Below are positions 22,356-58,182 of a DNA stretch of 64,000 bases, in pieces; position 1 is the stretch's first letter, and every line of letters starts with the position of its first letter. The DNA comes from a virus (lineage: Duplodnaviria; Caudoviricetes), in IMG/VR virus record IMGVR_UViG_3300021431_004525; one strand, 5' to 3'. Made by a program: the position numbers and the translations under genes. The notes below the pieces were generated by a model, which saw nothing but the letters and a program-made list of their open reading frames with translations, was not told the origin of the DNA and searched no databases.

Positions 22356-23772
22356 CTTTCAAGGAAACTCCATCCTTTAGGGTGGAGAGGAATTGAAAGT
22401 GGTCTTTTATTATTAAACTTATTTATTTTTTCATTTGCAAATTTACAATGTTTTCGGCAGAAAACAAAATATTTTTTGCAAAAAATATTTAATTATTGAT
22501 ATTTTTTATATTTATTAACATATTTATATATAAATTACGTTCACGACGTGAACAATACATAAATAAAATGATACTGACGTATAACATACAACTGCAACCG
22601 GATAAAACCACATATGACTACTGGGTTTCACTCCTTACAGATACTGCAAAAGCATACGACCTTTGCAGCGGCCTGCTTGCAGATAACAATACACCACTTA
22701 CCATCAAGTCAGTACATAATACATGCTATAACGTGGTACGTGAACAATTCCCCAACCTACCGGCACAATCCGTAATACGTGTACAAAAAGAAGCAATGTC
22801 CGCACTAAGAAGCAGAAAAGGCAACAAGCATAACGGAGATAAGCCAACAAAACATAACTTATCTCTCACACTCGATAAACGCATGTATTCAAGGCTTACA
22901 CCGGAAAACATTGCAATATGCGGAGGCATAAAGGGAAAACGCACCACCGTACCATTCGTCACCTACGACAAGGAAAAACAGATGTTTTCCATGTATAAGC
23001 CGTGTGACCCATTATTATTCCTACGTAGCAATACCCTATGGCTTTCTGTACCATTTAATGTACCGGATACCGTAGTATGCAATGACAACTCCATCGGTGT
23101 GGACTTGGGTATGAAACGTCTATTCGTCACATCTGAAGGTAATGCCTTCGTGGATAAGGAATACCTTCGTAATCGTAGAAAACTGCGTTACCTTAAACGC
23201 TGTTTGCAGAGTAAAGGTACTAAATCCGCAAAGAGACATTTGAAAAAAGTATCACGTAGGGAACGTAATATGTCAAGAGATATGCAGAACCGTGCGGTTC
23301 TTGCATTGATTGAATCCACCGATGCCGGTGTGATTGTAATGGAGGATTTAAGCAAGATTAAGAAAAACACGTCAAAGAGCAATGACGGATTTAAACGTAA
23401 GCGTCACAACAACGCAATTGCGCAAGTGCCGTTTGCGGAGTTCAAGACACGACTGACCAACAAGGCACACCTTTTCGGCAAGGAGGTGAAAACAGTTTCT
23501 CCGGTTTACACCAGTCAAACAGATTGCAGGAATGACAAGCGTAATGGCAAGCGTAATGGTTGCCGTTACTACTGCAAGGATGGTTTGGTATTGGATGCAG
23601 ACTGGAACGCAGCAGTCAACATAGCCAAGAAAGGCAAACACCCGTTTTCGAATATTCTTCCAGTCGACGGAAGGCTTAGGTTCTTAAACGGCAGGGTTTC
23701 GTCAATAACCCAATTGTCTGCATCCCTTAATGGGAACGGACAAGCCCCTCACTTTAGGGAGGGGTAATTGAC
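22356..23772 (+). mobile_element. IS200/IS605-family TnpB-only (IS1341-like) element
   Basis: Related subterminal hairpins CTCCATCC-TTTA-GGGTGGAG (left) and CCCCTCAC-TTTA-GGGAGGGG followed by TAATTGAC (right) flank tnpB. No tnpA. Exact ends uncertain. Confidence 0.8.
22568..23767 (+). CDS. tnpB: TnpB RNA-guided endonuclease
   Basis: RuvC I GVDLG, RuvC II VMEDL, YTSQT, RuvC III DADWNAAVNI. Start trimmed to ATG 22568. Confidence 0.92.
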   Translation: MILTYNIQLQPDKTTYDYWVSLLTDTAKAYDLCSGLLADNNTPLTIKSVHNTCYNVVREQFPNLPAQSVIRVQKEAMSALRSRKGNKHNGDKPTKHNLSLTLDKRMYSRLTPENIAICGGIKGKRTTVPFVTYDKEKQMFSMYKPCDPLLFLRSNTLWLSVPFNVPDTVVCNDNSIGVDLGMKRLFVTSEGNAFVDKEYLRNRRKLRYLKRCLQSKGTKSAKRHLKKVSRRERNMSRDMQNRAVLALIESTDAGVIVMEDLSKIKKNTSKSNDGFKRKRHNNAIAQVPFAEFKTRLTNKAHLFGKEVKTVSPVYTSQTDCRNDKRNGKRNGCRYYCKDGLVLDADWNAAVNIAKKGKHPFSNILPVDGRLRFLNGRVSSITQLSASLNGNGQAPHFREG

Positions 23773-43175: not shown

Positions 43176-43210
43176 GTTGGAGACTATACTTTAGAATTTC
43201 ACTTCTACCT
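43176..43210 (-). ncRNA. 35-nt hairpin RNA motif, copy A
   Basis: AGGTAGAAGTGAAATTCTAAAGTATAGTCTCCAAC behind promoter 43237. No ORF. Confidence 0.7.
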
Positions 43211-43307
43211 CTGTCAATTTCTTTATCTTTTGACAATGCAAAGGTAGTAAAAAAAACCGAGACTACCAAATAATCTCGGTTAAAGAATGTTAATGTAATT
43301 GTTAAAT

Positions 43308-43652
43308 TCAGTTTTCTATTTTCACCCAATAGGAGAATAGTTCATTTTTTGCCCTATATCTGTCGGGCATATGTCCATATCCGTCTGTATCGAGCCAATA
43401 GGCAAAATCGTCCAATAGTTCATCAAAGGTGTCGATAGTTTCTCTTACACTGCCATAATAGTAAGGCTTACAACCTTTTTTATATTCATGTGCAGTTGTC
43501 AGTGAGGTCACGGGATTTCTGTCAGATGTCATTACATATAGTCTGCCATTGCCTTCCTCAAATATCTCCCTTGCCCTTGTTTTTGAGACACGTAGATATG
43601 TTCCTATATCACTATCTGATATTAATTGAATTTTCTTTTTACTTATTGTCAT
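43308..43652 (-). CDS. hypothetical protein, weakly similar to 48975-49280
   Basis: Shared pattern A...(F/Y)E.G and F.....DF.Y(W/Y). Start trimmed. Confidence 0.7.
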   Translation of the reverse strand: MTISKKKIQLISDSDIGTYLRVSKTRAREIFEEGNGRLYVMTSDRNPVTSLTTAHEYKKGCKPYYYGSVRETIDTFDELLDDFAYWLDTDGYGHMPDRYRAKNELFSYWVKIEN

Positions 43653-43757
43653 ATAGATATTATTTAATTGTTTTCCCTTTGGTTTTCTTTTCAAGGATAA
43701 GCCACAGAACACCTATCAAGGCGAATACCAATGCTACAATAAGATTACCGGTAGCCA

Positions 43758-44204
43758 TTAGAAGTCCGTTTTATTTTCAAGATATTCTGTTACATAATGT
43801 TCATAGATTGCTTGGTATTCCTCACAACGTGTAACATATTTGAACACAAACGGAAGGAGTTCATCAAGCCATGCTATCATGTTCCTCTGAAGGTCTTTCA
43901 ATCTACCTATCATATATGGGGCTGAATAGTTTTCCCCATAGAGGAAAAGCGGCAATAGGTTTTCAGTTTGTACCTTATTCCAAATCCATGCGATATCGGT
44001 AACACCCAAATCACATTCATTTACCAGATACTGCAAATCCTCTTTGTCAGTAATATCGAAGATATAGTCGGCTCCGTTTCTTTCATCGTTTTGCATACGA
44101 TTATAGGCTGCAAGAACCATCTCAAGAACCTTATCATCAGTTTTGATGTCACGGGTAATTCTTGGTTTGATAATCTCGATAATGTTATTGAAAATCTGTT
44201 CCAT
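43758..44204 (-). CDS. hypothetical protein
   Basis: 148 aa behind promoter 44249. Confidence 0.8.
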   Translation of the reverse strand: MEQIFNNIIEIIKPRITRDIKTDDKVLEMVLAAYNRMQNDERNGADYIFDITDKEDLQYLVNECDLGVTDIAWIWNKVQTENLLPLFLYGENYSAPYMIGRLKDLQRNMIAWLDELLPFVFKYVTRCEEYQAIYEHYVTEYLENKTDF

Positions 44205-44672
44205 ATTTTCTTTTTTTTTATTTAAAATGATTTTGTTTCTAATTGTGATGCAAAGGTAATAATAAATTTTGAATTATCCAAATGAATTACATTATTTAAC
44301 ATTGATTTAACTAAGAATTAACGTTTAGTATTCCATTTTAGATAATATGAGATATACTTTCTGTTCACAGCCATGCAGCATATTATTCGTACCATATCCT
44401 TGCCCATAGAGTTTATAGATACGTTCCATTTGCTGTTTAATGGTGTCATAGGACTTAGCCGGTCTTGCGACACTTGCTGATGTGATAATTGCTGTAAGAA
44501 TCATATTTTTGTCCTCCTATTACATTGGTTTTAAAATTATACATATTATATATTAATTGATTTTTCAAGTACAAAGTTAGTGATAATTTTTGAGAGTACC
44601 AAATTTTTTGAGTTAAATCATCGTTAAATCCATGTGAAATTTATATAAAATTAACAATTCCGTACAGGACGT

Positions 44673-44707
44673 GTTGGAGACTATACTCTAAGGTTTTACC
44701 CTTACCT
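44673..44707 (-). ncRNA. 35-nt hairpin RNA motif, copy B
   Basis: AGGTAAGGGTAAAACCTTAGAGTATAGTCTCCAAC behind promoter 44722. Confidence 0.7.
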
Positions 44708-45130
44708 ATCAATTTTGATAATGCAAAGGTACGAATAATTTCTGAGAAAAACGAATTATTTTAGTTAATAGACATTAACAGATTGTTAAGAAATGTTAAT
44801 AGCCGCTATAGTGATATATCTTCTTCATCTGTATCTATTATATAATCTATTTCCGGTTTGATATATCTTATCTCTGTTGCTTTGCCGTACAATCCCACAT
44901 ATTCATTCAAATTCCATATACCATTGTATTTATCCATTCTGAATGAGATATTATGTTTATTGGGTTTGAAGTAACATTTGCAGAATATGCTATTGGTTGC
45001 TTTGAATATTCCGGTTTTATTGATATTTTCATCAATATATGTTTTATCAGCAGGGAATGTATTAACCATTTCCTTGGCCATATTCCAATACTTGATAATC
45101 TCTGAACCTTTAATTGATATGTAATTCATA

Positions 45131-45679
45131 TTATTTGATTTTTTCTATTGTGAATGTATATGGTGCTACTGCTCCGGAAAGCCATCTTGGGTTATCTATT
45201 TTCCACATTCTGTTTGGTTCTATTACATTCACGGCAAGTTTCTCATTATTGATTTCGTTCATCATATTAATCTCGCTTTGAATAAATTCATCTGTCAATT
45301 CATGTCCGAGAAGGATTTGTTCAGCGAAATGCCTGAAAGCAAGATACCAGTTCATTGATAAATCACCGCCATTAGGAAATACTCCACCATTCATAACAGA
45401 AACTTCGTGTTTTCCAAACTTATCTATGAATTTATATTTACCGCCAACAATGAAATATTTGTCGATTTTCTTGTGTGAAGGCTTATCCCAAGTTTCAATC
45501 GTATGTCGAATAATGTCAACCGACCTATACTGCCCGCCAACAAGATATGAATCTGCTGCTTTAGTAATAGTTACTTTTACCTTTGGGTATTGATACATTT
45601 TATTCTCATAGGCGATACATTTATCCTCTGTGTCGAATAAACGTCCATTGAAAGCCTTATAAGCGATTACTTGTTCCAT
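45131..45679 (-). CDS. hypothetical protein
   Basis: 182 aa. The N-terminal YKAFNG..F.....C..YE resembles the start of 5645-5923. Confidence 0.8.
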   Translation of the reverse strand: MEQVIAYKAFNGRLFDTEDKCIAYENKMYQYPKVKVTITKAADSYLVGGQYRSVDIIRHTIETWDKPSHKKIDKYFIVGGKYKFIDKFGKHEVSVMNGGVFPNGGDLSMNWYLAFRHFAEQILLGHELTDEFIQSEINMMNEINNEKLAVNVIEPNRMWKIDNPRWLSGAVAPYTFTIEKIK

Positions 45680-45917
45680 AACTGATATTGTTTAAATTTA
45701 TACTGCAAAGGTACAAAAAAGTTTTGATTTATCCAAATTGTTGAGGCTTAATCTTCGTTAAAACTATGTGAATTTTATATAATTTTAACAATTCCGTACA
45801 GACCATAAAGGAAACCTTTCTTCTTTCTTTTATATATTTTCTTTCTTCTGGGGAAGAAATGAAAATGAAAATTATATTAGTTAAAAATATAATTTTCCAT
45901 ACTTATACGATAAAATA

Positions 45918-45955
45918 CTCTATAGGTTCCGGTCTTGGACCTATAGAGATTTTTT
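45918..45955. terminator. intrinsic terminator-like hairpin
   Basis: CTCTATAGGT...ACCTATAGAG flanked by A- and T-tracts, downstream of the minus-strand gene ending at 45976. Confidence 0.6.
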
Positions 45956-46596
45956 ATTTTGAATTGATTTTTATTTTATCCCTGACATTCAGGGATTGAA
46001 ACCTCATGGAACTTGAATATACCTTTTAGTCGTTCAGATGCCTTATACGAAGCCATCATTGCCCCTCCTACGCTTGGATAGTGCATTGCATCATCCATGT
46101 TTTCTGTAAGACTTGTGCCATCATTGGAAAGAAATCCCTTCAAATCCTCTGAATAGATTACATACGTTTTGTTGCTCATACTCCTTTTATTTATTGAATT
46201 ATCGTTTTTACCACTTTTAAGGCTCGTAGGACGCATTTCTTTATTCAGATGGATAGTTATTAGTCTGAGACGTTAAAATGCGTTTATAAGCCATTTCTGA
46301 CGTTTTACGATGCAAAGATACAAATAATATCTCATACGGCCAAAGAATTTCTGTTAATTCATGCTAACAGAATGTTAAAAAATACAAAAAGGTCTTACCT
46401 ATCTATCTCAGACTTGTAAGACCCAAAATTAGTATTAACCTTAATTAAATAAAACCGGTGATAGTATCTGATACTACCTTTATCACGTTACTTGTCTTCA
46501 GTATATAAAAAATTTTCATTCGTGATAGGTGTCCGGTTAGTAACCCGTCCTAACTAAAATCAATTCATATAAAAATAACCTCACACTTGAGATTTA

Positions 46597-46673
46597 TGGT
46601 GGACCTGGGGAATTTTGCAATCCCGACCTTCGGCTTATGAGGCCGCTGCTACTTACTTCTGAGCTACAGGTCC
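46597..46673 (-). tRNA. tRNA with CAT anticodon (Ile2 or Met), encoded CCA, atypical D and T loops
   Basis: GGACCTGTAGCTCAG...CGGC-CTCATAA-GCCG...GGGATTGCAAAATTCCC-CAGGTCC-A-CCA. Confidence 0.8.
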
Positions 46674-46680
46674 TCTAAAT

Positions 46681-47270
46681 GTGAGTTCCTATCGTTCCCG
46701 TAAAGCGTCCGCCTCCACCTCCAATGGTCGCAAGGCCGTTATAGGAAACTCACCGCACTACTTTGGAAATTCTTGCAAGTGTTGGTTGTGACCTCTCCAA
46801 CGTGTTTTTGCACGGGCCTAATCGGCTATAAGACCTTTACGTTCACATTAACCAACAATTTCCACTTTTCATGCCGGCACATCTCCTAAATCATCATCGT
46901 AATCACTACGTTAATGTAAACTCTCTTAGTACATGCCATTGTCAGAATTATTGCAAATCATTCCGACTGAGTTTATCCTTCTCGTCCCTGCGTTACCGCT
47001 TGCCAATCAGGCCCGGTCCGCAATCTGCGCTTGAAGGTTGAGCCACTTTCCGAAAGAGAACGTAGAGAGAACCGGATATGGCATTGCCACTTACACATGC
47101 AATGAAAGATTATAATCCAACAATTGACACGGGCGAATTTCATATAGTCCACTGACTTTAATTCGCAAAGGCGATGTGGCTTGTTCTCACTTTGGTCTAT
47201 GCTGCGGTATCTGTGCGTCACCGTTTCACCTATATAACGGGCTGCGTTGATTAGCGTCAGCAATAAGCCT
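46681..47270. ncRNA. candidate large structured ncRNA region next to the tRNA
   Basis: About 600 nt, visibly GC-richer than its surroundings, no credible ORF, several stems (e.g. GTGAGTT-CCTAT...ATAGG-AAACTCAC at 46681-46753). Confidence 0.45.
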
Positions 47271-47779
47271 TATTTTAAATATGAATTTATATTATACTAA
47301 CCTTATTTGTCAAGGCTTGTCCCTTACTCTTATCATAGTTCCAAAGTCTTATATTAATATTAAACAAATCAAATCTTACATGCCCTTTAATTGGGCGGAG
47401 GTCTTGTGTCCATATTATTTGAACTATTACGGATTGGTACTAAGGTGGAATATTCCCCACAACCTCCCATCATCCATCGTTGGTTTTACAACTCCGCTAA
47501 TACTTTCTTGCGGGTGTCACGGTCATTTGTTTTATTTTGACAATGCAAAGTTACAACAATTTTCTCATATTTCCAAATATTTTATGTTAAAAAGTGTAAA
47601 GCCTTATGTTAAAAACCGTTTAGTGTTTGCGTTTTCGTTCACCAAAGGATTTAGGGTCATTAGCAATCTCTGTTGCACCGGCTTTCAGCATTTGAGGAAT
47701 ACGCTCATACTCTCTTTGGGTGAAAAAATTTACGATATAAGGTGTTTCCATATAGATTGATATTTCTTTTTATTATTTA

Positions 47780-47904
47780 ATCACGGGGAATTAGCGGTTG
47801 CCGGTTAAGCCCTCACCAGTTTTTGTTTAGACCTCCTTCTTAAACTGCGCAGCGGTTAGGTACTGGGTCTGCTTGGGTTCCGGTCAACCCCGCTATTCCG
47901 TGAT
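47780..47904. ncRNA. candidate ~125-nt structured RNA
   Basis: Long closing stem ATCACGG..GAA.TAGCGG.TTG.CCGG / CCGG.CAA.CCGCTATTCCGTGAT with internal hairpin GTTTAG-n8-CTAAAC. Confidence 0.55.
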
Positions 47905-47928
47905 ATGTTTTACTTTCGTTTATTCTTT

Positions 47929-48255
47929 TCAAGCAGCCAACTTGTTAATAACCTGCTTCAACCTACTTGTCACAAAGCCTTTCGTCTTGTTGTCCTTGAT
48001 GGTGTCGCTCAACATGTCGCAGATATAGTTCAGCGTTGGAATGACATTCTCAGATGTAATGTTTCCGGTACCGACTTTTGCAGCGGCCTTGCTAAGTTCC
48101 TCTCCATGGCTTTCAATTGCAAGAATGATAGCGTCCTTATCCCAAGCATGGATGCCGGTGAATGTGGCCAATGCCTTGCCGTTCTTACACACTACTACGT
48201 TTCCGTTCTTGTCCATCACGTCAAACGTACCTACTTTTGTCACAATCTGTACCAT
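47929..48255 (-). CDS. hypothetical protein ending LAA
   Basis: 108 aa, GC-richer codons. Confidence 0.85.
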   Translation of the reverse strand: MVQIVTKVGTFDVMDKNGNVVVCKNGKALATFTGIHAWDKDAIILAIESHGEELSKAAAKVGTGNITSENVIPTLNYICDMLSDTIKDNKTKGFVTSRLKQVINKLAA

Positions 48256-48326
48256 AATTCTTAGATGTTTTTATTAATCAATGTTTAACTTAATCTGTCT
48301 ACCATACTCATTTGAGTACATGGGGG

Positions 48327-48400
48327 TGACTCCGGCGTGGCTCGAACACGCGACACCAAGTTTAGGAAACTTGTGCTCTATCCAACTGAGCTACGGAGCC
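48327..48400 (-). tRNA. tRNA-Arg(CCT)
   Basis: GGCTCCGTAGCTCAGTTGGATAGAGCA-CAAGT-TTCCTAA-ACTTG...GTTCGAG...CGGAGTCA. Canonical cloverleaf, CCA not encoded. Confidence 0.95.
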
Positions 48401-48974
48401 TGTTTGTAGGTTTTCCTATTCCACCTACCAAGCCACATGGACTTAACTCTCACCATGTTCTACCGGTCAATTCCGTTTGGGTCAGGACTAATCTAACACA
48501 CCTCTCGGCTTGTCTGCACTTTCTTAGGGTGCTTGCGGCCTAATTGAAAACCCACTATTGGTAAAACTCCTTCAGCCTATTGTCCTTAGTTTTTATTCCA
48601 TTGTCGGCATAAATAGATTTACAAAATGAGCATAAAATAGGCTTGTGGCATCAGCTAATTGACTTATATTTTCATTCTCGGCAGTGATTGAAACAAAAAC
48701 AAAGCCTTCATAGATGTCCTCTTTATATGAAAACTTGGTGCCAAAGGCTGGAAAAACTGAATTGATAAACTCTTTCAGTTGCTCTAATTCTTTTTCATTT
48801 CCACTTTTTTCGATGTTCAAAAGCTGAATCTTCATAATCTAATCTCCTATTAATTTAAATTGACACTGCAAAGTTACGAATAATTTTTTAATCTACCAAA
48901 CTTTTTTGCTTAAAGAAGTTTAATGAATTGTTAATTGATGTTAATGTGTACTCATTCGAGTACATGGGGTCTGC

Positions 48975-49280
48975 TCATGCTGCCTCCACGAAGAAGATAG
49001 GATATTTTCCACGTTCATTGTCGCAATTGTAATACCGGAAGTCATTAACGATATTCTCAAAGGTACTGCCATTGGTAAAGGCATTATCCTCAACATGTTT
49101 CTTACTTGTGGGGAAAGGTTTTTGCCACACATTGTTTACACGCATCATGCAAGGGTGCATCCATATAGGTTCACCATTCTCATAGGCTTTCTTTGCCATA
49201 GGTGCTGTAACTTGTTTCACTTTGTGAGAAATACCATCACAGTCTACCATTTGAAAAGTCATTCCTTTATAGCGTAACAT
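48975..49280 (-). CDS. phage hypothetical protein ending EAA
   Basis: FRYYNCDNERGKYP motif. Confidence 0.85.
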   Translation of the reverse strand: MLRYKGMTFQMVDCDGISHKVKQVTAPMAKKAYENGEPIWMHPCMMRVNNVWQKPFPTSKKHVEDNAFTNGSTFENIVNDFRYYNCDNERGKYPIFFVEAA

Positions 49281-49348
49281 ATTCTTATTTCTAAATAATA
49301 TTTGTTATTTGTTACTCATTTGAGTACATGGGTAGGTAATGTGGGGGC

Positions 49349-50038
49349 TTATGCGGCCTCCACGTTACACACCTTACCTTTAAGACTACTCTCTTTGTAA
49401 TAGACGGCTTCACCATTTGAGAAAACACCGCCACAGACGTAAACCTCCTCACAGATATACCGGCACACATCGTCGACCTCATCAGATAGTTTTTCTATCA
49501 TACCATTCAGCCACTTCACAAGGTTTTTCCTTTGGATTTTAGCCAATCCGGCATTCCATGTGTCACACCATGAATCGGTGACATTTTCTTGCCATGTGTC
49601 GGCAATATCATCCACAAGAGACTCTATGGAATAATTTTCAGAAATCCGGAAGTGATTACCGTAATTATCAGATATACAAATGTCCCAATCGTAGTTCATT
49701 CCGGAATAATGACCGCTATGAACATAAATCTCCTGACTGAATTCAAAATTGTTGAAATCCATGTCAGCACCCTTTTTACCGAAAGCATACCATTTAGACT
49801 TAGACGAAAGACAAGATGCGTGCATACTATCTTGATAGGAGTTACGGTCATTGTAGTCCACAGGGTCAAAACCCTTTTCCTTTGCGCTTTCTTGTGCAAA
49901 GTCGATATCGCAATCATAGTCAATGGAATCCTTAAATACCTCGACCTCCTCCTCAAGTTCATCATCATAAGCGGTTGTTGTATCGCCTACGACATAATAA
50001 TTACGTGCATTGATTTTGTGGAAATTAGGACAACTCAT
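49349..50038 (-). CDS. acidic hypothetical protein ending EAA
   Basis: 229 aa, FSNGEAVY near the C-terminus. Confidence 0.85.
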   Translation of the reverse strand: MSCPNFHKINARNYYVVGDTTTAYDDELEEEVEVFKDSIDYDCDIDFAQESAKEKGFDPVDYNDRNSYQDSMHASCLSSKSKWYAFGKKGADMDFNNFEFSQEIYVHSGHYSGMNYDWDICISDNYGNHFRISENYSIESLVDDIADTWQENVTDSWCDTWNAGLAKIQRKNLVKWLNGMIEKLSDEVDDVCRYICEEVYVCGGVFSNGEAVYYKESSLKGKVCNVEAA

Positions 50039-50260
50039 AATGTAAAGAATTTTTATTTGTTATACTTCTCGAATACATAGCCATAAGCAAGAATAGACGC
50101 AAAAAACCCTACAGAAATCGTTAAAAAACTTCTGTACGGATTGGATAAACAGAATACGCTATAGCCTAATATAGCGCACCATATAAGTGTAATAAACACT
50201 AAAAGAAATCTTTTCTTATTATTCATATACCTTAATTTTTAGATGTTATTTGAAATCGGA

Positions 50261-50403
50261 TGCAAAGGTAAGCATAATATTTGAGACCACCAAATTTTCA
50301 GCGTTTTTTTATGATTTGTTAAGGAATACCCATGAATTGTGTTAAAGTAATGTTAAACACCTCAAAATATTTGCATAATTCAAAGAAATGTATTACCTTT
50401 GCA
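50261..50403. promoter_or_regulatory. divergent promoter pair at the strand switch
   Basis: Minus TACCTTTGCA at 50261-50270 and plus TACCTTTGCA at 50394-50403, with TGTTAA boxes between. Further plus copies near 51073, 51456, 51996, 52148, 52433, 53154, 53352, 53833, 54914, 56398. Confidence 0.88.
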
Positions 50404-50468
50404 GTGTCAAAAGTTAAGGGAATGACACCCCACAAGTTTAACATCTTTAATTTATAGGAGAGACAAAT

Positions 50469-50756
50469 ATGACTAACAAGGATTTGATTAAGGCTTTTAT
50501 CAACGGCAAAGAGGCACAGAATAAGTCAATGCGTACCAATGGTACAAAGTTGTTCAGTTATTTTACTTGCATCGCTCAGAAGACTTCTGACGGCATTCTA
50601 TTTAACGTCTGCAAGTATAGCACGACAACAAGCAAGCAGCAGACCTACACACGAGATGAACTTGAGATACACGGAAAAAAGTTTACAGAAGTAGGTGCGG
50701 ACACATACATACCGCGTGGCACATGCGACCTCACACGCTACCATAAGGCAGCATAA
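50469..50756 (+). CDS. phage hypothetical protein ending KAA
   Basis: LFSY.T.IA...YSTTTSKQQ motif. Confidence 0.85.
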   Translation: MTNKDLIKAFINGKEAQNKSMRTNGTKLFSYFTCIAQKTSDGILFNVCKYSTTTSKQQTYTRDELEIHGKKFTEVGADTYIPRGTCDLTRYHKAA

Positions 50757-50876
50757 GGTTAAAATAAAATTTCATTTTTTTGTTTTTTGAATTTTTATAT
50801 TTATCTTTCCCCTTCAGTCCGTGATGGATAGAGGGGGGATTTATTTAACATTTTTTAATAAATAAAAATTGGACAT

Positions 50877-50911
50877 GTTGGAAACTATACTTCAAAGTTT
50901 CACCCTTGCCC
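50877..50911 (-). ncRNA. 35-nt hairpin RNA motif, copy C
   Basis: GGGCAAGGGTGAAACTTTGAAGTATAGTTTCCAAC behind minus promoter 50930. Confidence 0.7.
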
Positions 50912-51130
50912 TTTGTCTTTCATTGACGATACAAAGGTACAAAGAATCTTTGAAATATCCAAATAAAAATCAATTTATTTTCAACGGGTTATTGTTTTTT
51001 AACAGAAAATTAACGAATTGCAAAACTATATTAAAAAATCGCCAAAAATTTGGTAGTCTCAGATTTTTGTTGTACCTTTGCATCAGAAATCAAGGAATAA
51101 TTCCGAGATAACATAAATTAGTTTTTTAAT

Positions 51131-51391
51131 ATGGAACGTTTAGAAATAAAAAAGTACGACAAAAATTTCGGTGCATATCTTGTTATTAATACAAGTGAGT
51201 GTGAATCGTGGGCTGTAGATGGTGACAAGCCATTAATTCATGAGGTGACATCAGCCGAGGACTTTATGAATTTAGGTTTAGAGGTCTCAACCGATGGCAG
51301 ACCGTTCACAGACCTCAAAATAGGTGAAAAAGTTGCCGATATTGATTTTGGCGGTGACTATGAGGGTGTATATGTAATGAGAGTTGGTTAA
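51131..51391 (+). CDS. hypothetical protein
   Basis: 86 aa behind promoter 51073. Confidence 0.8.
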   Translation: MERLEIKKYDKNFGAYLVINTSECESWAVDGDKPLIHEVTSAEDFMNLGLEVSTDGRPFTDLKIGEKVADIDFGGDYEGVYVMRVG

Positions 51392-51496
51392 CATCTTTTA
51401 ACAATTCTGAAATGCTTTTTAACTAAAATAATTTGCATATTTCAGAAAAATGTATTACCTTTGCAGTGTCAAATTAAAAATCAATTCATATAAGTT

Positions 51497-51844
51497 ATGG
51501 TCAGAACAGAATATCAGATAAAATTGAAAAGCGGCTTATATGTCGGCTTAGTAAATTTCGGCAGAACCTATAAGGCTTGCAAGAAGGCTTGCCGTTTGAG
51601 TGGAATCACGGAAGATACCGCAAAGCGTCTCGCAATGGATTGGGATGGCGAATTAACAGAGTTTACGCTTCTCCCGTGTGTGATGTCCAACTATGGCGAA
51701 GGATGGGACGTGGAATGTTTTTGCGCCACGAAAGAGGAGGCAAAGGCAGACCTTCAATCCTACCGTGAGAATTGCCGTGATGCGGCATTCCAAATAAAGT
51801 GGAAATGGAGTGAAAGATACATCAGCCTCAAGGAGGTTGCATAG
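51497..51844 (+). CDS. hypothetical protein
   Basis: 115 aa with NYG.GWD.E and L..YREN motifs. Confidence 0.8.
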   Translation: MVRTEYQIKLKSGLYVGLVNFGRTYKACKKACRLSGITEDTAKRLAMDWDGELTEFTLLPCVMSNYGEGWDVECFCATKEEAKADLQSYRENCRDAAFQIKWKWSERYISLKEVA

Positions 51845-52019
51845 AGATACGCGAAGGGGTGGCTACCCTTCTATTAGGAAAAGTAACAGAGCCTAACGTA
51901 GAAGCAAGACCAAAGTGTTTACCCTCAAAACATTTTTTAACAATTCATTTAAGTTTCTTTAGCACGAAAAAGTTGCATAATTCAGATTTTATTCGTACCT
52001 TTGTAGTACAAAAATAAAG

Positions 52020-52054
52020 AGGTAGGAGTGAAATCCTAAAGTATGGTCTCCGAC
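52020..52054 (+). ncRNA. 35-nt hairpin RNA motif, copy D
   Basis: AGGTAGGAGTGAAATCCTAAAGTATGGTCTCCGAC behind promoter 51996. Confidence 0.7.
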
Positions 52055-52504
52055 ACGAGCCAATTAAAATTGTTAATATTCCTTAATTTTTAACATTCTT
52101 TAACAAAAATAACTGGGCAAAAATTTGTATATTCCAAAAAATTGTCGTACCTTTGCACTATCAAAAATGAATTAGTAATAACCCTTTAATATTAATAAGG
52201 TATGGTAGCAATAAATAAAAATCATCTGAAAATTGGACGTTACACAATCCAACATGATTGGAATGAAGGTTTTGTTGTCCTTGATGAAGAAGGTCAGCAG
52301 TACGGAAGTGGCTACGACCATGTATGTGATGCAATCGAACAAGTTTTGATGTATAACGACTGAGAATTGTTAAAGGAGGTTAAAACCAGTGTTAAAAACT
52401 GTAAATCCCTTGGTTATTCCAAAAAATATTCGTAACTTTGCATCGTCAAAATAAGACAAGTAATTCACATTAAGTTTAATTCTAAAAAATAGGAGATTTA
52501 AGTT

Positions 52505-53044
52505 ATGGCAAAAAATTCAGTTGAAACCGCAATTCGTAACGCTGCAAGCAGCAAGGTGGCAGGCAAGTTCAATCTTCCGCAGTACAAGAAAGAAGGTACA
52601 AAGCATTATGACGAGCGACAGAAGGCACTTCTGCACAAGCGTATCTGTGAGGAAATCGTAGCCTTTGCAGACAGCCACAAGGACATCCCATTCTATTTCA
52701 TCCTTCAAGTAGGTGTCTCTAAGGGTGCTTTCAAAATGTCGGAGTTTGAGAAGGGTTACAAGCAGTTCAAGGCTTGCAAGGTGGAGCAAGTTCACATGAT
52801 GGGCATGGAGTACAACAAGTACAACGGACTTGAGGGAAAGAAGATGTCAGACGTGACCATCCGTTTGGTGATGCGTTACTACGAGAAAGTTAGCAGTGAT
52901 TTCGTGACGTTCATCAACGACCTCAACAAGTCCGAGAAATTGGGCAAGCAGTGTGGGGCACGCGGCAATTACGAAGCACTCTGCAAGAACCTTAATATCC
53001 CCGTCAAGGAGACCGAGGACAAGCCAATGGCAGATGCAGCCTAA
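52505..53044 (+). CDS. hypothetical protein ending DAA
   Basis: 179 aa, own promoter at 52433, GC-richer codons. Confidence 0.88.
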   Translation: MAKNSVETAIRNAASSKVAGKFNLPQYKKEGTKHYDERQKALLHKRICEEIVAFADSHKDIPFYFILQVGVSKGAFKMSEFEKGYKQFKACKVEQVHMMGMEYNKYNGLEGKKMSDVTIRLVMRYYEKVSSDFVTFINDLNKSEKLGKQCGARGNYEALCKNLNIPVKETEDKPMADAA

Positions 53045-53045
53045 A

Positions 53046-53061
53046 TGTTCCACGTGGAACA
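53046..53061. promoter_or_regulatory. parS: parS centromere-like site (perfect)
   Basis: TGTTCCACGTGGAACA matches the canonical bacterial parS consensus TGTTNCACGTGRAACA. Confidence 0.88.
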
Positions 53062-53177
53062 TCAACCAAAGGGGAAGGGTATAACGCTCTTCCCTTAATT
53101 TTTTTAACTATGTTAAAAGTGTTAATTTGCTTGCGTAATTCAATTATTTTTTGTACCTTTGCAGTAGAAAAATTAAA

Positions 53178-53212
53178 AGGTAGGGGTGAAACTCTAAAGT
53201 ATAGTCTCCAAT
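53178..53212 (+). ncRNA. 35-nt hairpin RNA motif, copy E
   Basis: AGGTAGGGGTGAAACTCTAAAGTATAGTCTCCAAT behind promoter 53154. Confidence 0.7.
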
Positions 53213-53403
53213 ACACCCCATTATATAAATGTGAATTTTATTTAATATTATATGAATGTTATATAATTTTAACATTTTCGTACTATACTATCAGAAATGT
53301 TAATTTAATGTTAAACATACGAATTTCCTTGGTTATTTGAAAAAATTGTATTACCTTTGCATCACAATTAAAAAACAAGTTAAACATTCAAATATTAAAT
53401 AAT

Positions 53404-53661
53404 ATGTTCGGAAAAGGTTCTAAATATAGTTTCAATGGTGACGGCAATTTAGATTGTCAGTTTCTCACCTCCACCTTTGAGGATGGATATCCATATTCTG
53501 TAGGTGTCGTGAATCATACCAAAAAAACGGTTAACCCTGTTCATGGCTACCACTACCCAAACAGATGCGCAAAAGGTCTTATGAACTATGCGCTTAAATT
53601 AGGCTACACCTATGAGGACAGCGAAATGCCAAACAAATTGAATAAAACAATTAAAAACTAA
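53404..53661 (+). CDS. hypothetical protein
   Basis: 85 aa behind promoter 53352. Confidence 0.75.
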   Translation: MFGKGSKYSFNGDGNLDCQFLTSTFEDGYPYSVGVVNHTKKTVNPVHGYHYPNRCAKGLMNYALKLGYTYEDSEMPNKLNKTIKN

Positions 53662-53882
53662 ATGATATGATATACTTTGTAAATGGTAAGGCTAAATTTG
53701 CCTTCGGTGACAAGTCAATGAACGACCATGCAAGACAAGTCATGGATAATCTGAAATGTAAAGAAACCGGAAAAAGATTTGCTGCTTAACATTCTTTAGC
53801 ACGGAATATTTGCATATATCAGATTTTATGACTATCTTTGCACCATCAAATTTAAGTTTAACGTTTTAATTCATTTAAAGTT

Positions 53883-54407
53883 ATGGCATACGATATTAAC
53901 AACATCATGGCAAAGGAAAACGCAATGCGCGACCCTAAGAACGTAACAGAATGGAAACAGCAACGAGAAATGTTACGCGACTATCTGATACCCATCAGCA
54001 CTGCTGAAAACGTCTCTGTGGGCGAAATATACGGCTTCTGCCCCTATATCATTTATGTAAGGATGGACGCACTGAAGCGAGAGGATTGGCCGAATAACAT
54101 CGCCGAAAATTCCATCTATATCGACTTTAAAATAGACCTTTTTAACAAAAAGGTGGAAGTACATCAAAATGGGCATATTTGGCTTTCACCATACGACAAA
54201 ACAACACCAAAGTACAAGTATCTCGCCATGAAGTCAATGCAAGACGTATTGGTCGACAATGGTGGCAAGAAGTTCCGCAAACAGGGCTATAAGGACATTA
54301 AAGACCTTGCCAACAAAATGCAGAAGTATTACGCACAAGTCATGGAAGCCGTCAATGACTACACCGATGGCTATCCATACAAACAAGGAACAAAACAAGC
54401 GGCATAA
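53883..54407 (+). CDS. hypothetical protein ending QAA
   Basis: 174 aa behind promoter 53833. Confidence 0.88.
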   Translation: MAYDINNIMAKENAMRDPKNVTEWKQQREMLRDYLIPISTAENVSVGEIYGFCPYIIYVRMDALKREDWPNNIAENSIYIDFKIDLFNKKVEVHQNGHIWLSPYDKTTPKYKYLAMKSMQDVLVDNGGKKFRKQGYKDIKDLANKMQKYYAQVMEAVNDYTDGYPYKQGTKQAA

Positions 54408-54519
54408 ACAGATTTTTTAAATTAATACTATGTTGTTAGTCCGTTCAGTCCGAGAGGATAGGACGGATTTTATTTTACTTACATTTTGAAACATAAATTA
54501 ACATATTATCAATGGATGG

Positions 54520-54554
54520 GTCGGAGATTATACTCTAAGGTGTCACCCTTACCA
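54520..54554 (-). ncRNA. 35-nt hairpin RNA motif, copy F
   Basis: TGGTAAGGGTGACACCTTAGAGTATAATCTCCGAC at the 3' end of the non-coding unit from promoter 54778. Confidence 0.65.
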
Positions 54555-54595: not shown

Positions 54596-54738
54596 TGACT
54601 CATTGGGGAATCGAACCCCAAAGGTGAACATTTTTGCCGACAGCACCATCTGTTTCCGACTACTCATGCGCTGACACCATACTTTATCATAGGATTGGTA
54701 GTCCTAAAAGCCTCCAAGCCAGCCTTATCGTTTGAGCC
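54596..54738 (-). ncRNA. tRNA-like RNA (acceptor stem plus T-arm, enlarged body)
   Basis: 5' GGCTCA can pair with 3' TGAGTC-A. Perfect T-arm TGGGG-TTCGATT-CCCCA. No canonical D or anticodon arms. Confidence 0.55.
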
Positions 54739-54971
54739 TTTGTTATTTGAAAGAACGCCTTTTATTTCTTTTGACGATGCAAAGGTACAAAATAATCTTG
54801 AATTTCTATGTTAATTGACTGTTAAAAATTCGTTAAAAAACGTTCAATTGTTAAATAAACTAAATCCACTAAAAATAAATTCATTTTTTCTTGCATATAT
54901 CAGTTTTTTTCCGTACCTTTGCATCGTGAAATTAAAACAAATAGTAATAACTCTTTAATACATTATTTATT

Positions 54972-56075
54972 ATGACACAGATTTTGAATATCAACGGACA
55001 GAGTAACGTGAGCGTTAATCCTAACACAGAGACGGGCGCACAGCGTGTAGCATGGCAGCAGTTCGGTACAATCTGCGAGAAGGGTGCAACCATCCACGAC
55101 GTTATGGCAGACGTAACAAGTGAAAACCGCATTAACTATGAGGTTGGCGAAATGCCACTGATGCGTGTACCTTCTGAAATGGTTGAGGCTATCCGCAAAG
55201 GTGAGGCTTTCGATTGGAATCCGTCAGTGTCCGACATCATCAGCACCCATAAGGCTACGCTGCGCACTGACAATAACGACACACTTGGTATCGTAGGTAA
55301 GGGCTACGGAATCGTGCAGAACAGCAAGGCTTTCGACTTCATGGACTTCATTAAGGAGGCAAGCGGTAGTGAACCCGTTATCGAATCCTATGGCGCACTT
55401 GGCTATGGCGAACGTATGTTCATCACTGCCACACTTGGTGAGGATTCGTATCTTAACCCTAACGACGCAATCAAGAACTATGTGGTGTTCACTAACTCAC
55501 ATGATGGCAGTGGCGGTGTCATGGCTTTCTTCACCCCGATTCGTGTGATTTGTCAGAACACGCTGAACATGGCTATTAAGGGCTGCGCCAACAAAGTGGT
55601 GTTCAAGCACACTTCTAAGGTCGACGAGCGTCTTGATTGGACTATCGAGCGCAACCGCAAAATTGCTGCTGAACTTTTCAGCAAGTCAGTGAAATTTAGC
55701 GACAAGTTCATGGAGCGTATGCTTGGACTCAAGGAGGAGACCATCACTGCTGAATATGCACGAGACTTCGTAGGCAAGTTGTGTCTGACTGCTCCCGCCT
55801 TTGAACTTTGGAAGAAGGCTGACTTCAAGGCTGACCACGTTGAGGAAATCAGCACACGGACAAAGAACATTATGGCAGCCCTGACGGACAGCATCGAGAA
55901 TGGAGTAGGACAGGAGTACAATCGTGGCACAAAGGTGTGGCTGCTGAATGGTGTGACTACCTACCTTCAGAATGAGAAAAATTGGAAATCTCAGGAAGAC
56001 AAGTTCAACGCTATGATGTTCGGTAGCGCACAGAAGAAGGTCGAGGATGCTTACCAACTGCTGATGGCTGCGTAA
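54972..56075 (+). CDS. DUF932/DUF945-family phage/plasmid protein
   Basis: LGIVG..Y.IVQN..AF.F, G.L..GER.FI, TNSHDGSG, TPIRVICQNTL. Confidence 0.9.
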   Translation: MTQILNINGQSNVSVNPNTETGAQRVAWQQFGTICEKGATIHDVMADVTSENRINYEVGEMPLMRVPSEMVEAIRKGEAFDWNPSVSDIISTHKATLRTDNNDTLGIVGKGYGIVQNSKAFDFMDFIKEASGSEPVIESYGALGYGERMFITATLGEDSYLNPNDAIKNYVVFTNSHDGSGGVMAFFTPIRVICQNTLNMAIKGCANKVVFKHTSKVDERLDWTIERNRKIAAELFSKSVKFSDKFMERMLGLKEETITAEYARDFVGKLCLTAPAFELWKKADFKADHVEEISTRTKNIMAALTDSIENGVGQEYNRGTKVWLLNGVTTYLQNEKNWKSQEDKFNAMMFGSAQKKVEDAYQLLMAA

Positions 56076-56091
56076 GGTTTCACGTGGAACA
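56076..56091. promoter_or_regulatory. parS: parS site (15/16)
   Basis: GGTTTCACGTGGAACA immediately after the DUF932 stop codon. Confidence 0.8.
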
Positions 56092-56439
56092 TACACGGAG
56101 GGGGATGTGGTAGGGCTACTGCACCCCCTCCCTATGTACCCCCTACCTACGTATCCACCCTCTCAGCCACCCCCTATGTTTCCGGCTGACGGTAGCACAC
56201 GGTTTGCTCTGCAAATCTTTGAAAAAATTCTGGAAAAAAATTAAGGGGGTGGGGGTTATTCTATTAAAGGTTATTTCAAAAAAAATTCCAGAAAAATTTT
56301 TGAAAATCTAAAATATGACATATATTAAACAAATGTACTAAATATGTAAATTTAAGTTTCTTTAACTAAAAAGATTTGGCTATTTTGGCAAAAATGAGTA
56401 ATTTTGCATTTGAAATTATTTTAAAATGAAAAAATACTT

Positions 56440-58182
56440 ATGGAAGTACAACAACAGAAAAAAATCACAGAAATTTTCAACACAATTGGTTGGAAACGTC
56501 AAAATGCTGAACGTTTAGTAATTGAAGAAAATGAACAGCGCGGTTATGAATGGGGGACTCAGCAGTTCAAAGAATTGATGGAAGACATTGAAGAACAAAT
56601 AGCGTCTAAATCCCCTAAAGAAATATATTTATCAACATTTCTTAGTCACCAAGAAGCAAATTCTCCATTTACTAAGATATTTGATGGTAATCAACGTTTA
56701 ACTACAATTTTAATACTATTAATTGCTCTTCGTGATTATATCAAGCACAATTTTGAAGAGAACTTATATTATAATGACATTATTCGTAGAATTGAAGAAT
56801 GTATTTTTAATTCTAACAATGAATGTATTATGATTTTGCAAAACGAAGATAACAATTGTCTTACTGATATTCTCAATAACAGTGATTCTGTGTTCAAGAG
56901 TGTATATATGTTTAAAAACAATCTTGTTAACAAAATGTATCGTAACTGTTATAATTACATACACATGCGCACAGAACAATGTCCTGATTATCCGTTTTTA
57001 CTTTTTACAAAAGGCATTGAAAATGTAGTAATGGCAGAAGAACGTGCAACAACAAAAAATGAGGCAAGGCGTTTGTTTGGTAGAAAGAACGCTTCTGGTA
57101 TTAATGTAGCAAAAGGAAATGTAATTTCCTCTTTTATTTGTGGTTTAATTGATTTATATACTGACAGTCGTGATGAGTTCATTCACGTCAAGACTAAATT
57201 TGATGGTGCAATGTCTCGTATTCCGTCAAAAGAGTACACTGACTTTTACCGTCTTTTTCTTTATTATTTAAAAGACACATATTTAACTCCGTCTCAAACA
57301 CAAAAGGAAATTGAAAAAATCACTAAATCGGCATTAAAGGGTACTGAAAAGAATGACCATTTTAGTAACATTTCTGAATTGATTGACTGTATTGACCGTT
57401 TCAGTAAATTTATGTCTGAAGTTAGTCATAAGCGTTTAAGTGAGTTTGCACCTTCGCATAAGATTAATCGTCTGCTTTCATTAACACCAGATGAAATAAC
57501 AATTACGATTACGATGATAGATTTATTTACTGACAAATATTCTAATTACAACATTGATAATGAAGATAAATATCAAATATTAAATGGTGTAATGAAAATT
57601 ATCGTAAGAAGAATGTTCGCGCCAAATTCTACTAACCATTCGGAAAAGACTATGCTTAATGTAATGGGAAACATCCTAACTTTGAAGGGGTGTAATGAAC
57701 ATTTATATCAGACGTTTAAACGTTACATGTCTGGCGAAACAAACAAGGCACTATGTTATGGCTATTTGACTGAAAGTGACCTTATAGAAAGAGTATCTAA
57801 AATTCCGGTTTATAGGCGTTTAGGTTCTAGGATGCAAGTGTTAAAATACTTATTCCATAACTTAAACAAATATGTTAATAGTGGTATCGAACAATATGTC
57901 TACACTGACTTTAATGATATGACTATAGAACACATTAAATCACAAAATGAATTTTCATCGAAAGACCTTTTACAACACACAATTGGTAATCTTACACCAC
58001 TTACACGAAATAATAACTCACGCTGTAAAAATCGTCCATTCAATGATAAAAAGGCTGTATACCTTAATAGCGGAATAAAATTAACAGAAAGTGTCGGCTC
58101 AAAGGCATATTTCAATAATGAAGAAATTGTTAATAGGAGTAATGAACTTGCCCCATTAATTATGGAAATTACAAGATTATAA
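56440..58182 (+). CDS. GmrSD/SspE-like DUF262 + DUF1524 (HNH) nuclease
   Basis: QRGYEW, DGNQRLTT, F...NASG. C-terminal TIEHI, IGNLT.L...NN and F.DKK..Y. Confidence 0.88.
   Translation: MEVQQQKKITEIFNTIGWKRQNAERLVIEENEQRGYEWGTQQFKELMEDIEEQIASKSPKEIYLSTFLSHQEANSPFTKIFDGNQRLTTILILLIALRDYIKHNFEENLYYNDIIRRIEECIFNSNNECIMILQNEDNNCLTDILNNSDSVFKSVYMFKNNLVNKMYRNCYNYIHMRTEQCPDYPFLLFTKGIENVVMAEERATTKNEARRLFGRKNASGINVAKGNVISSFICGLIDLYTDSRDEFIHVKTKFDGAMSRIPSKEYTDFYRLFLYYLKDTYLTPSQTQKEIEKITKSALKGTEKNDHFSNISELIDCIDRFSKFMSEVSHKRLSEFAPSHKINRLLSLTPDEITITITMIDLFTDKYSNYNIDNEDKYQILNGVMKIIVRRMFAPNSTNHSEKTMLNVMGNILTLKGCNEHLYQTFKRYMSGETNKALCYGYLTESDLIERVSKIPVYRRLGSRMQVLKYLFHNLNKYVNSGIEQYVYTDFNDMTIEHIKSQNEFSSKDLLQHTIGNLTPLTRNNNSRCKNRPFNDKKAVYLNSGIKLTESVGSKAYFNNEEIVNRSNELAPLIMEITRL

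Follow-up and report, generated by a model that had tools for sequence, protein, structure and literature searches.

Promoter-proximal antitermination RNAs are known from phages as the lambdoid nut sites (boxA/boxB) and the put sites of HK022. A different promoter-linked hairpin is found in T4-type phages, whose promoter-early stem-loop (PeSL) cassettes carry a terminator stem-loop upstream of the promoter and have been proposed to play a role in DNA recombination (PMC2839356, PMC4122927). Furthermore, viral solitary repeat units have been described as solitary, promoter-proximal and hairpin-bearing elements that occur without cas genes (Camara-Wilpert et al. 2023, PMC10651486). Here, we analyze a short RNA element that is like each of these systems in some respects and unlike it in others. 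It lies in a 64,000-nt stretch of the virus record IMGVR_UViG_3300021431_004525 (hereafter, the window), within the study region 43176-54554, and was first pointed out from the letters of this sequence alone (the original prediction). We find that it is a real, strand-specific, promoter-linked and multicopy RNA motif, new to Rfam and to the literature searched.

Scanning the window with a degenerate 34-nt consensus returned exactly six matches, at 43176-, 44673-, 50877-, 52021+, 53179+ and 54520- (suffixes denote strands), compared to none expected from 100 shuffles, and the six gap-free copies of the original prediction were thereby recovered. No seventh copy was detected in the window by a structure-blind hidden Markov model (HMM) built from these six. 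The -7 box of Bacteroidota promoters is TAnnTTTG, and one form of it, TACCTTTG, occurs 39 times in the window (2.7 expected). Five of the six copies lie behind their own promoter of this form (P1), as had been proposed, the box being separated by 17-29 nt from the GG in front of the stem. For the copy at 54520-, the nearest promoter is ~230 nt upstream, and closeness to a promoter is therefore not obligatory. The copies and the promoters in front of them are as follows:

43176..43210, minus strand: RNA element copy 1, stem TAGAA/TTCTA
44673..44707, minus strand: RNA element copy 2, stem TAAGG/CCTTA
50877..50911, minus strand: RNA element copy 3, stem CAAGG/CTTTG with one G-U pair; stand-alone, convergent with the open reading frame (ORF) 50469-50756
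52020..52054, plus strand: RNA element copy 4, stem TAGGA/TCCTA
53178..53212, plus strand: RNA element copy 5, stem TAGGG/CTCTA with one G-U pair
54520..54554, minus strand: RNA element copy 6, stem TAAGG/CCTTA; without adjacent promoter; stand-alone, convergent with ORF 53883-54407
43239..43246, minus strand: P1 -7 box (TACCTTTG) of copy 1
44724..44731, minus strand: P1 -7 box of copy 2
50932..50939, minus strand: P1 -7 box of copy 3
51996..52003, plus strand: P1 -7 box of copy 4
53154..53161, plus strand: P1 -7 box of copy 5
54780..54787, minus strand: distal promoter of the copy-6 transcript

Relatives of these copies were gathered with a looser pattern, carrying N at every stem position, and then with the structure-blind HMM; the pattern used for the metagenomes held the two outer stem pairs fixed, and the three inner pairs were free in every search. 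A set of 72 unique copies, taken from related phages, aligned over 91 columns with zero gaps, and RNAalifold predicted the 5-bp hairpin as the only structure of this alignment. All 355 of its 355 stem cells pair, with compensatory changes at 4 of the 5 pairs. Double changes were observed in 103 cells, compared to 28 in shuffles, and none of 500 shuffles reached 103; when the stem positions were slid as a further control, just 28-56% of cells paired. In the larger set of 258 unique copies, which contains 32 distinct stems, pairing was found in 1285 of 1290 stem cells. The claim that the stems vary yet always pair, which had been made for the six window copies, is thus borne out in both larger sets. 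Furthermore, G-U pairs outnumber A-C pairs by 63 to 2 among the 258 copies. The fold is therefore one of the promoter-sense strand, formed as single-stranded RNA, in agreement with the strand that the original prediction had assigned from G-U wobbles.

After an A-rich leader, the consensus consists of GG, (U/C)A-NNN, G-U-R-A-N-A, NNN-U(A/G) and R-A-G-U-A-U-A-N-U-C-U-C-C. The loop (GURANA) and the tail (RAGUAUANUCUCC) are conserved at 93-100% except at their R and N positions, with tail position 37 being free, and the 20 nt past the tail open with AACAC(A/G), which is semi-conserved, and are A/T-rich at their end. A possible 3-bp pseudoknot between loop and tail (columns 19-21 with 33-35) is compatible with 99% of cells, with only one side varying. 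Two additional structures were considered and rejected: an extra helix between the 5' GG region and the tail CUCC shows no compensating changes in the alignment, as judged by eye, and a mini-ORF, in which a GUG in the loop would be in frame with UAA, UAG or UGA at the stem foot, lacks a conserved start codon, with half of the copies reading GUA.

The linkage to promoters extends to the family as a whole. A TAnnTTTG box precedes 237 of the 258 unique copies (92%) at a distance of 19-37 nt, most often 25-26 nt before the start of a 40-nt model that begins 3 nt before the GG and from which the + distances below are counted. In ~40 of 73 copies, a second promoter (P2) follows at +130 to +144, with a start codon then at ~+165 to +205, and the interval between element and P2 is without a terminator. 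The small ORFs behind these cassettes are highly diverse (164 ORFs in 88 clusters, mostly 50-120 aa). In the window, three or four copies have a second promoter and a small ORF ~100 nt downstream. Therefore, the statement that the copies come with no ORF holds within the unit itself and does not hold for what lies beyond it. A different arrangement is found in at least 14 of the 73 copies (about 20%), including window copies 50877 and 54520, for which the 3' end of a convergent ORF comes next. Behind such stand-alone copies, strong hairpins are located at ~+70 to +115, several of them with U-runs on the element strand, and these units contain all that a small RNA (sRNA) gene of ~125-145 nt would need. 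Some of these self-contained units point against their neighbor, as had been noted for the copy at 50877. The corresponding features of the window are:

52148..52155, plus strand: P2 of the copy-4 cassette, 130 nt from the start of the 40-nt model; drives ORF 52202-52363
53352..53359, plus strand: P2 of the copy-5 cassette; drives ORF 53404-53661
44572..44579, minus strand: P2 (TAACTTTG) of the copy-2 cassette; drives ORF 44325-44504
52072..52076, plus strand: GTTAA box, copy-4 example, exactly 20 nt past the tail; one of the general GTTAA/TTAAC boxes upstream of promoters
50809..50837, minus strand: hairpin closing the stand-alone copy-3 unit, common to the convergent plus-strand gene
54440..54467, minus strand: hairpin closing the stand-alone copy-6 unit

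The two closing hairpins (50809-50837 and 54440-54467) and locus L002 (~1965-1995) have a conserved loop in common, CTATCC-N-C-N-CGGACTGAA, and the hairpins with this loop adjoin different convergent genes. The GTTAA box was found exactly 20 nt past the tail in 176 of the 258 copies, and in the alignment of 72 copies the stretch from tail to box is free of indels. As an extension of the motif it was nevertheless rejected, since two or three GTTAA/TTAAC boxes, phased by 10-11 bp, are present at ~-53 and -42 of nearly every real promoter of the window and therefore represent a general feature of promoter architecture. They fall into two orientation classes (examples at 52368-52395, 9554-, 22254-, 2740- and 30710-), which may mark temporal groups, and the boxes are probably the site of a transcription factor of phage or host.

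In total, the structure-blind search yielded 324 copies, 258 of them unique, in 161 phage-like loci, with the metagenome part of this total being the matches listed. A first viral set contributed 92 copies in 34 loci, mostly on contigs of 215-380 kb, and the metagenome scan at least 119 loci, some of them in assemblies named human gut and on contigs of 380-400 kb. The family was drawn from metagenomes of ruminant and human gut, with complete genomes of ~380 kb among its carriers; sequencing runs with DNA of the window derive from sheep, goat and bovine gut, and two IMG/VR contigs share 80-87% identity with the window. With a covariance model, 12 copies were mapped to positions 175-193 kb in a complete 380-kb genome and another 12 to positions 7.5-25.8 kb in a contig of 220 kb. 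A 42-kb fragment holds 7 copies in a stretch of 10 kb, and in the 125-kb relative of the window 6 copies lie at 74-87 kb; CheckV rates this relative as 32% complete, an estimate by which the phage may be much larger. The genomes of these large phages of Bacteroidales from the gut thus carry 6 to 12 copies, clustered in one island of 13-18 kb with small early-type genes, and the order of strands is kept (a minus block, a plus block and a minus block).

The motif also proved to be specific to phages. The bacterial assemblies that bear it are rumen and cecum metagenome-assembled genomes (MAGs) of Bacteroidales (Paludibacteraceae, Muribaculaceae and UBA3724), in which the copies are dispersed on short phage-like contigs, and across 151 Bacteroidales genomes the matches of the covariance model were confined to phage-like contigs. 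A scan of one genome per species for 185,579 prokaryote species returned seven loci; these comprise copies scattered over contigs of Bacteroidales MAGs from rumen and gut, and two single matches in unrelated taxa. None of 50,697 GenBank phage records contains the motif, and no published description of it was found in the literature searched. At the gathering threshold, Rfam 15 recognized only two tRNAs in the window and none of the elements. When the scan was relaxed to E values of up to 5, a single overlap appeared, between SpF51_sRNA and the tail of copy 5 (21.3 bits, E 4.7), which is weak and at chance level.

Fold, strand, promoter linkage, multicopy clustering, terminators of the stand-alone units and phage specificity are observed features of the element. 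Our preferred, if tentative, reading of its sequence is that of a multicopy early phage RNA module that forms the 5' part of short transcripts and serves as a putative protein-recognition handle. An invariant loop, stem foot and tail combined with a freely covarying stem argue for recognition by a protein, and the presence of complete sRNA genes together with the high copy number points to a role of the RNA itself, which could lie in titrating a factor or in tagging the transcripts that derive from P1. According to this model, host RNA polymerase would start at a Bacteroidota sigma-A-type promoter (TTTG at -33, TAnnTTTG at -7) and produce an A-rich leader of ~10-15 nt, followed by a 5-bp hairpin of any sequence that pairs. 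The hairpin would hold the fixed GURANA loop on fixed foot pairs (GG-UA...UA), with the single-stranded RAGUAUANUCUCC tail behind it, and a sequence-specific RNA-binding protein of phage or host would read loop and tail. The 6-12 copies per genome would fire from a single island of early-type small genes. Roughly one in five would be a complete sRNA gene of ~125-145 nt closed by a terminator, and most others would take the upstream place in tandem-promoter cassettes that precede small ORFs of diverse kinds. Acting in bulk, the RNA would either titrate its partner or mark transcripts that are promoter-distal, and the partner would then decide what becomes of them. Inferred here are transcription as such, binding by a protein, the timing and the biological role.

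Several points weigh against this reading. In ~70% of copies, a same-strand gene comes next and no terminator precedes the next promoter and gene; many copies may therefore act as leaders rather than as free sRNAs. Likewise, the exact spacing of 20 nt between tail and GTTAA, together with the 12-13 nt that separate the foot of the hairpin from the end of the tail, also fits the geometry of a transcription pause. Furthermore, a partner protein was not found among the window ORFs that recur near elements in distant phages. Four ORFan families do recur in this way, none of them with a match to a known family, and the proteins of two of them, of 179 aa (52505-53044) and 174 aa (53883-54407), are predicted to fold confidently, with predicted local distance difference test (pLDDT) values of 86 and 89; these two families have no Pfam or PHROG match, and a fold search of the PDB with their models gave nothing better than E 0.06. 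Finally, the four metatranscriptome runs covering 42.5-55.5 kb consist of assembled contigs, which are blind to small RNAs, transcript ends and levels, and thus speak neither for nor against expression of the element. The all-helical 179-aa ORFan (52505-53044, plus strand) is the best-conserved protein of the island: its identity is 55-96% in 18 of 19 aligned relatives and 33% in the last one, and 62-66% in distant jumbo-phage loci. Its last residue is an invariant Ala, with the consensus ending in Ala-Ala.

Foremost among the alternatives is an action in cis on transcription elongation, which nevertheless appears rather unlikely to us. The nascent hairpin and the 12-13 nt behind it would make the polymerase pause or resist termination after P1 and would thereby control read-through into P2 and the small genes, resembling a hairpin-dependent pause or the lambdoid nut/put sites. 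In 92% of copies the element falls among the transcript's first ~60 nt, which is in line with this, as are the distance of 12-13 nt between hairpin foot and tail end, the GNRA-like loop (as in boxB), the indel-free spacing of tail and GTTAA in the 72 copies, the second promoter in ~40 of 73 copies, and the same-strand gene that follows ~70% of copies without an intervening terminator. Thus, as in nut/put, a promoter-proximal hairpin in the predicted nascent RNA is combined with a conserved linear element and repeated for each early unit. However, the order and the sequences of the elements differ from nut/put, and no N-like or Nus-type partner was found; none of five phage records, one of them complete, encodes a NusG/RfaH-like protein. 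One unit in five stops at a terminator behind which no gene lies, and since at least 14 of 73 units meet a terminator and a convergent gene, nothing downstream is left to regulate in these cases. The copy at 54520, with its promoter ~230 nt away, and the generality of the GTTAA/TTAAC boxes among the phage promoters likewise argue against this explanation. The consensus pause signal has G at -10, a pyrimidine at -1 and G at +1, and the tail fits it only partly. A base-pairing sRNA, whose single-stranded tail would be the seed for mRNAs of host or phage with sites like GGAGA-N-UAUACU, is of low probability. The stand-alone units do show the classic sRNA layout of promoter, 5' hairpin, conserved single strand and terminator, and the tail is the most conserved part of the element, but its free position 37 lies in mid-tail, which is unusual for a seed. 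Moreover, complements of the tail with up to 2 mismatches were found at 4 sites of the window outside the elements, compared to 3.2 total matches expected by chance, and exact complements are at chance level in 401 genomes of the host order; pairing through short seeds of 7-8 nt is still conceivable. Very improbable, in our view, is a DNA-level or replication role, as a PeSL-like recombination cassette, an operator, or an origin primer or R-loop source. The element does resemble PeSLs in that many promoter and stem-loop modules are dispersed over gene-variable regions of a large phage, in front of unrelated and highly diverse small genes (PMC4122927). The AT-rich non-coding DNA behind each copy would also suit a DNA-level function, the strongest case for connecting the element with DNA-level events is its fixed distance of 20 nt to GTTAA, and the cluster straddles a minimum of the cumulative GC skew and a divergent gene switch at ~50-52 kb. 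However, this minimum is not independent evidence of an origin, because it coincides with the change in gene orientation; the region ~50000-52000, with its back-to-back promoters 50939(-) and 51073(+) at the skew minimum, could be a replication origin or simply such an orientation change. PeSL stem-loops are terminators before the promoter, not after it (PMC4122927), whereas the element has a weak 5-bp hairpin 17-29 nt downstream of the -7 box, in the predicted 5' end of the transcript; this hairpin shows covariation as RNA, and its loop and the tail behind it are invariant. The 63 G-U versus 2 A-C pairs and the free but paired stems speak for selection on a one-strand fold and not on duplex DNA.

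The original prediction favored counter-defence, with the RNA serving as a decoy that mimics or pairs with a CRISPR repeat, or mimics a type III antitoxin RNA, and soaks up a host immune protein. We consider such a decoy improbable. As solitary, hairpin-bearing units of ~35 nt that lie close to a promoter and occur in high copy, the elements match the published solitary repeat units (PMC10651486). With these and with the RNA anti-CRISPRs (Racr) they also have in common a promoter of their own upstream and the lack of cas genes nearby, and a dose-dependent action would be expected of them. Furthermore, the island of small ORFan genes adjoins DUF932 and GmrSD-type genes, the latter with N- and C-terminal domains, which lie directly beside it at 54972-58182 on the plus strand; a counter-defence role is thus allowed by the context. 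A Racr takes its definition from likeness to a CRISPR repeat; however, no CRISPR repeat similar to the element or complementary to its tail was found: a scan of one genome for each of 185,579 prokaryote species gave no CRISPR array with the motif, the tail 12-mer occurs on either strand 0-3 times per genome in the 401 Bacteroidales genomes, like a reversed control, and in three carrier MAGs, with one mismatch allowed, it was repeated only on phage-like contigs. The elements match neither CRISPR-DR nor any other Rfam family, and the covariance model was silent in 150 host genomes. In addition, a single phage has copies with different stems, which is at odds with mimicry of one fixed repeat. The proposals of a repeat mimic and of an antisense to the repeat are thus not upheld, and the same applies to pseudo-ToxI. 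In contrast to the tandem array of ~34-45-nt repeats in ToxI antitoxin RNA, the copies are dispersed and never in tandem, with a spacing of at least ~900 nt in every record; as to likeness to a host antitoxin repeat beside an endoribonuclease toxin gene, Rfam yielded no match whatsoever and the genomes scanned held no copy in a host, with host toxin loci not having been examined individually. A guide-RNA assignment was likewise rejected. A TnpB omega-RNA or Cas12 guide RNA is contradicted by the absence of PF07282 from the 380-kb genome and the 220-kb contig, which hold 12 copies each, and no element-like sequence adjoins tnpB; nor does the freely variable 3' guide of such an RNA agree with the 20 nt past the tail, which are only partly variable. 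The window itself encodes a TnpB-type gene (22496-23767, plus strand) with Cas12f1-like TNB and OrfB_IS605 domains, and nine such genes are present in a related 282-kb phage record and none in the complete 380-kb genome. A tool for RNA-based takeover or counter-defence that is unrelated to CRISPR repeats is also unlikely, if less so than the decoy: a dozen strong promoters would flood the cell early with an RNA that captures a conserved host protein; nucleases, immune sensors or RNA-binding regulators of Bacteroidales would be examples.

Besides the six copies, two sequences of the region resemble parts of the element or its surroundings:

54673..54706, minus strand: degenerate element-like unit, read by eye, with a UAGGA/UCCUA stem followed by AAGUAUGGUGUC
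47431..47496, minus strand: diverged paralog of the copy-6 unit, with 28 nt of identical upstream segment followed by a degenerate hairpin and tail

On the minus strand at 54597-54647, in the interval from the distal promoter to copy 6, lies a T-arm-like hairpin with perfect pairing (GGGG-TTCGATT-CCCC) and a weak mascRNA-type Rfam match of 16.5 bits. A tRNA upstream of copy 54520 was considered and rejected, since only this T-arm-like hairpin is present, ARAGORN finds no tRNA and the fold z-score is +1.2. The copy-6 paralog sits at the 5' end of a highly abundant transcript, 46707-47372, which is ORF-poor, probably on the minus strand, and located between a promoter at 47553- and a tRNA at 46600-46673-. 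In four metatranscriptome runs from three studies, RNA-contig depth over this region is 29-424, compared to ~1-10 for its neighbors. It may represent an abundant non-coding RNA of ~650 nt that is co-transcribed with the tRNA; it has no Rfam match, and conservation (83%) was seen only in the closest relative.

The analysis defines a compact RNA motif with unusually clean covariation and hundreds of examples in ruminant and human gut metagenomes, and its genomic logic is clear, with multiple promoter-linked copies in one island. To our knowledge, Bacteroidota lack Hfq and ProQ, and a protein that reads the motif would therefore be of interest in itself. If the takeover explanation were true, a large clade of jumbo phages from the gut would have this strategy in common. 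Among gut bacteria, Bacteroidales are dominant, and hardly any characterization exists of their large phages; the motif offers an experimental handle on how gut jumbo phages control or protect their early program.

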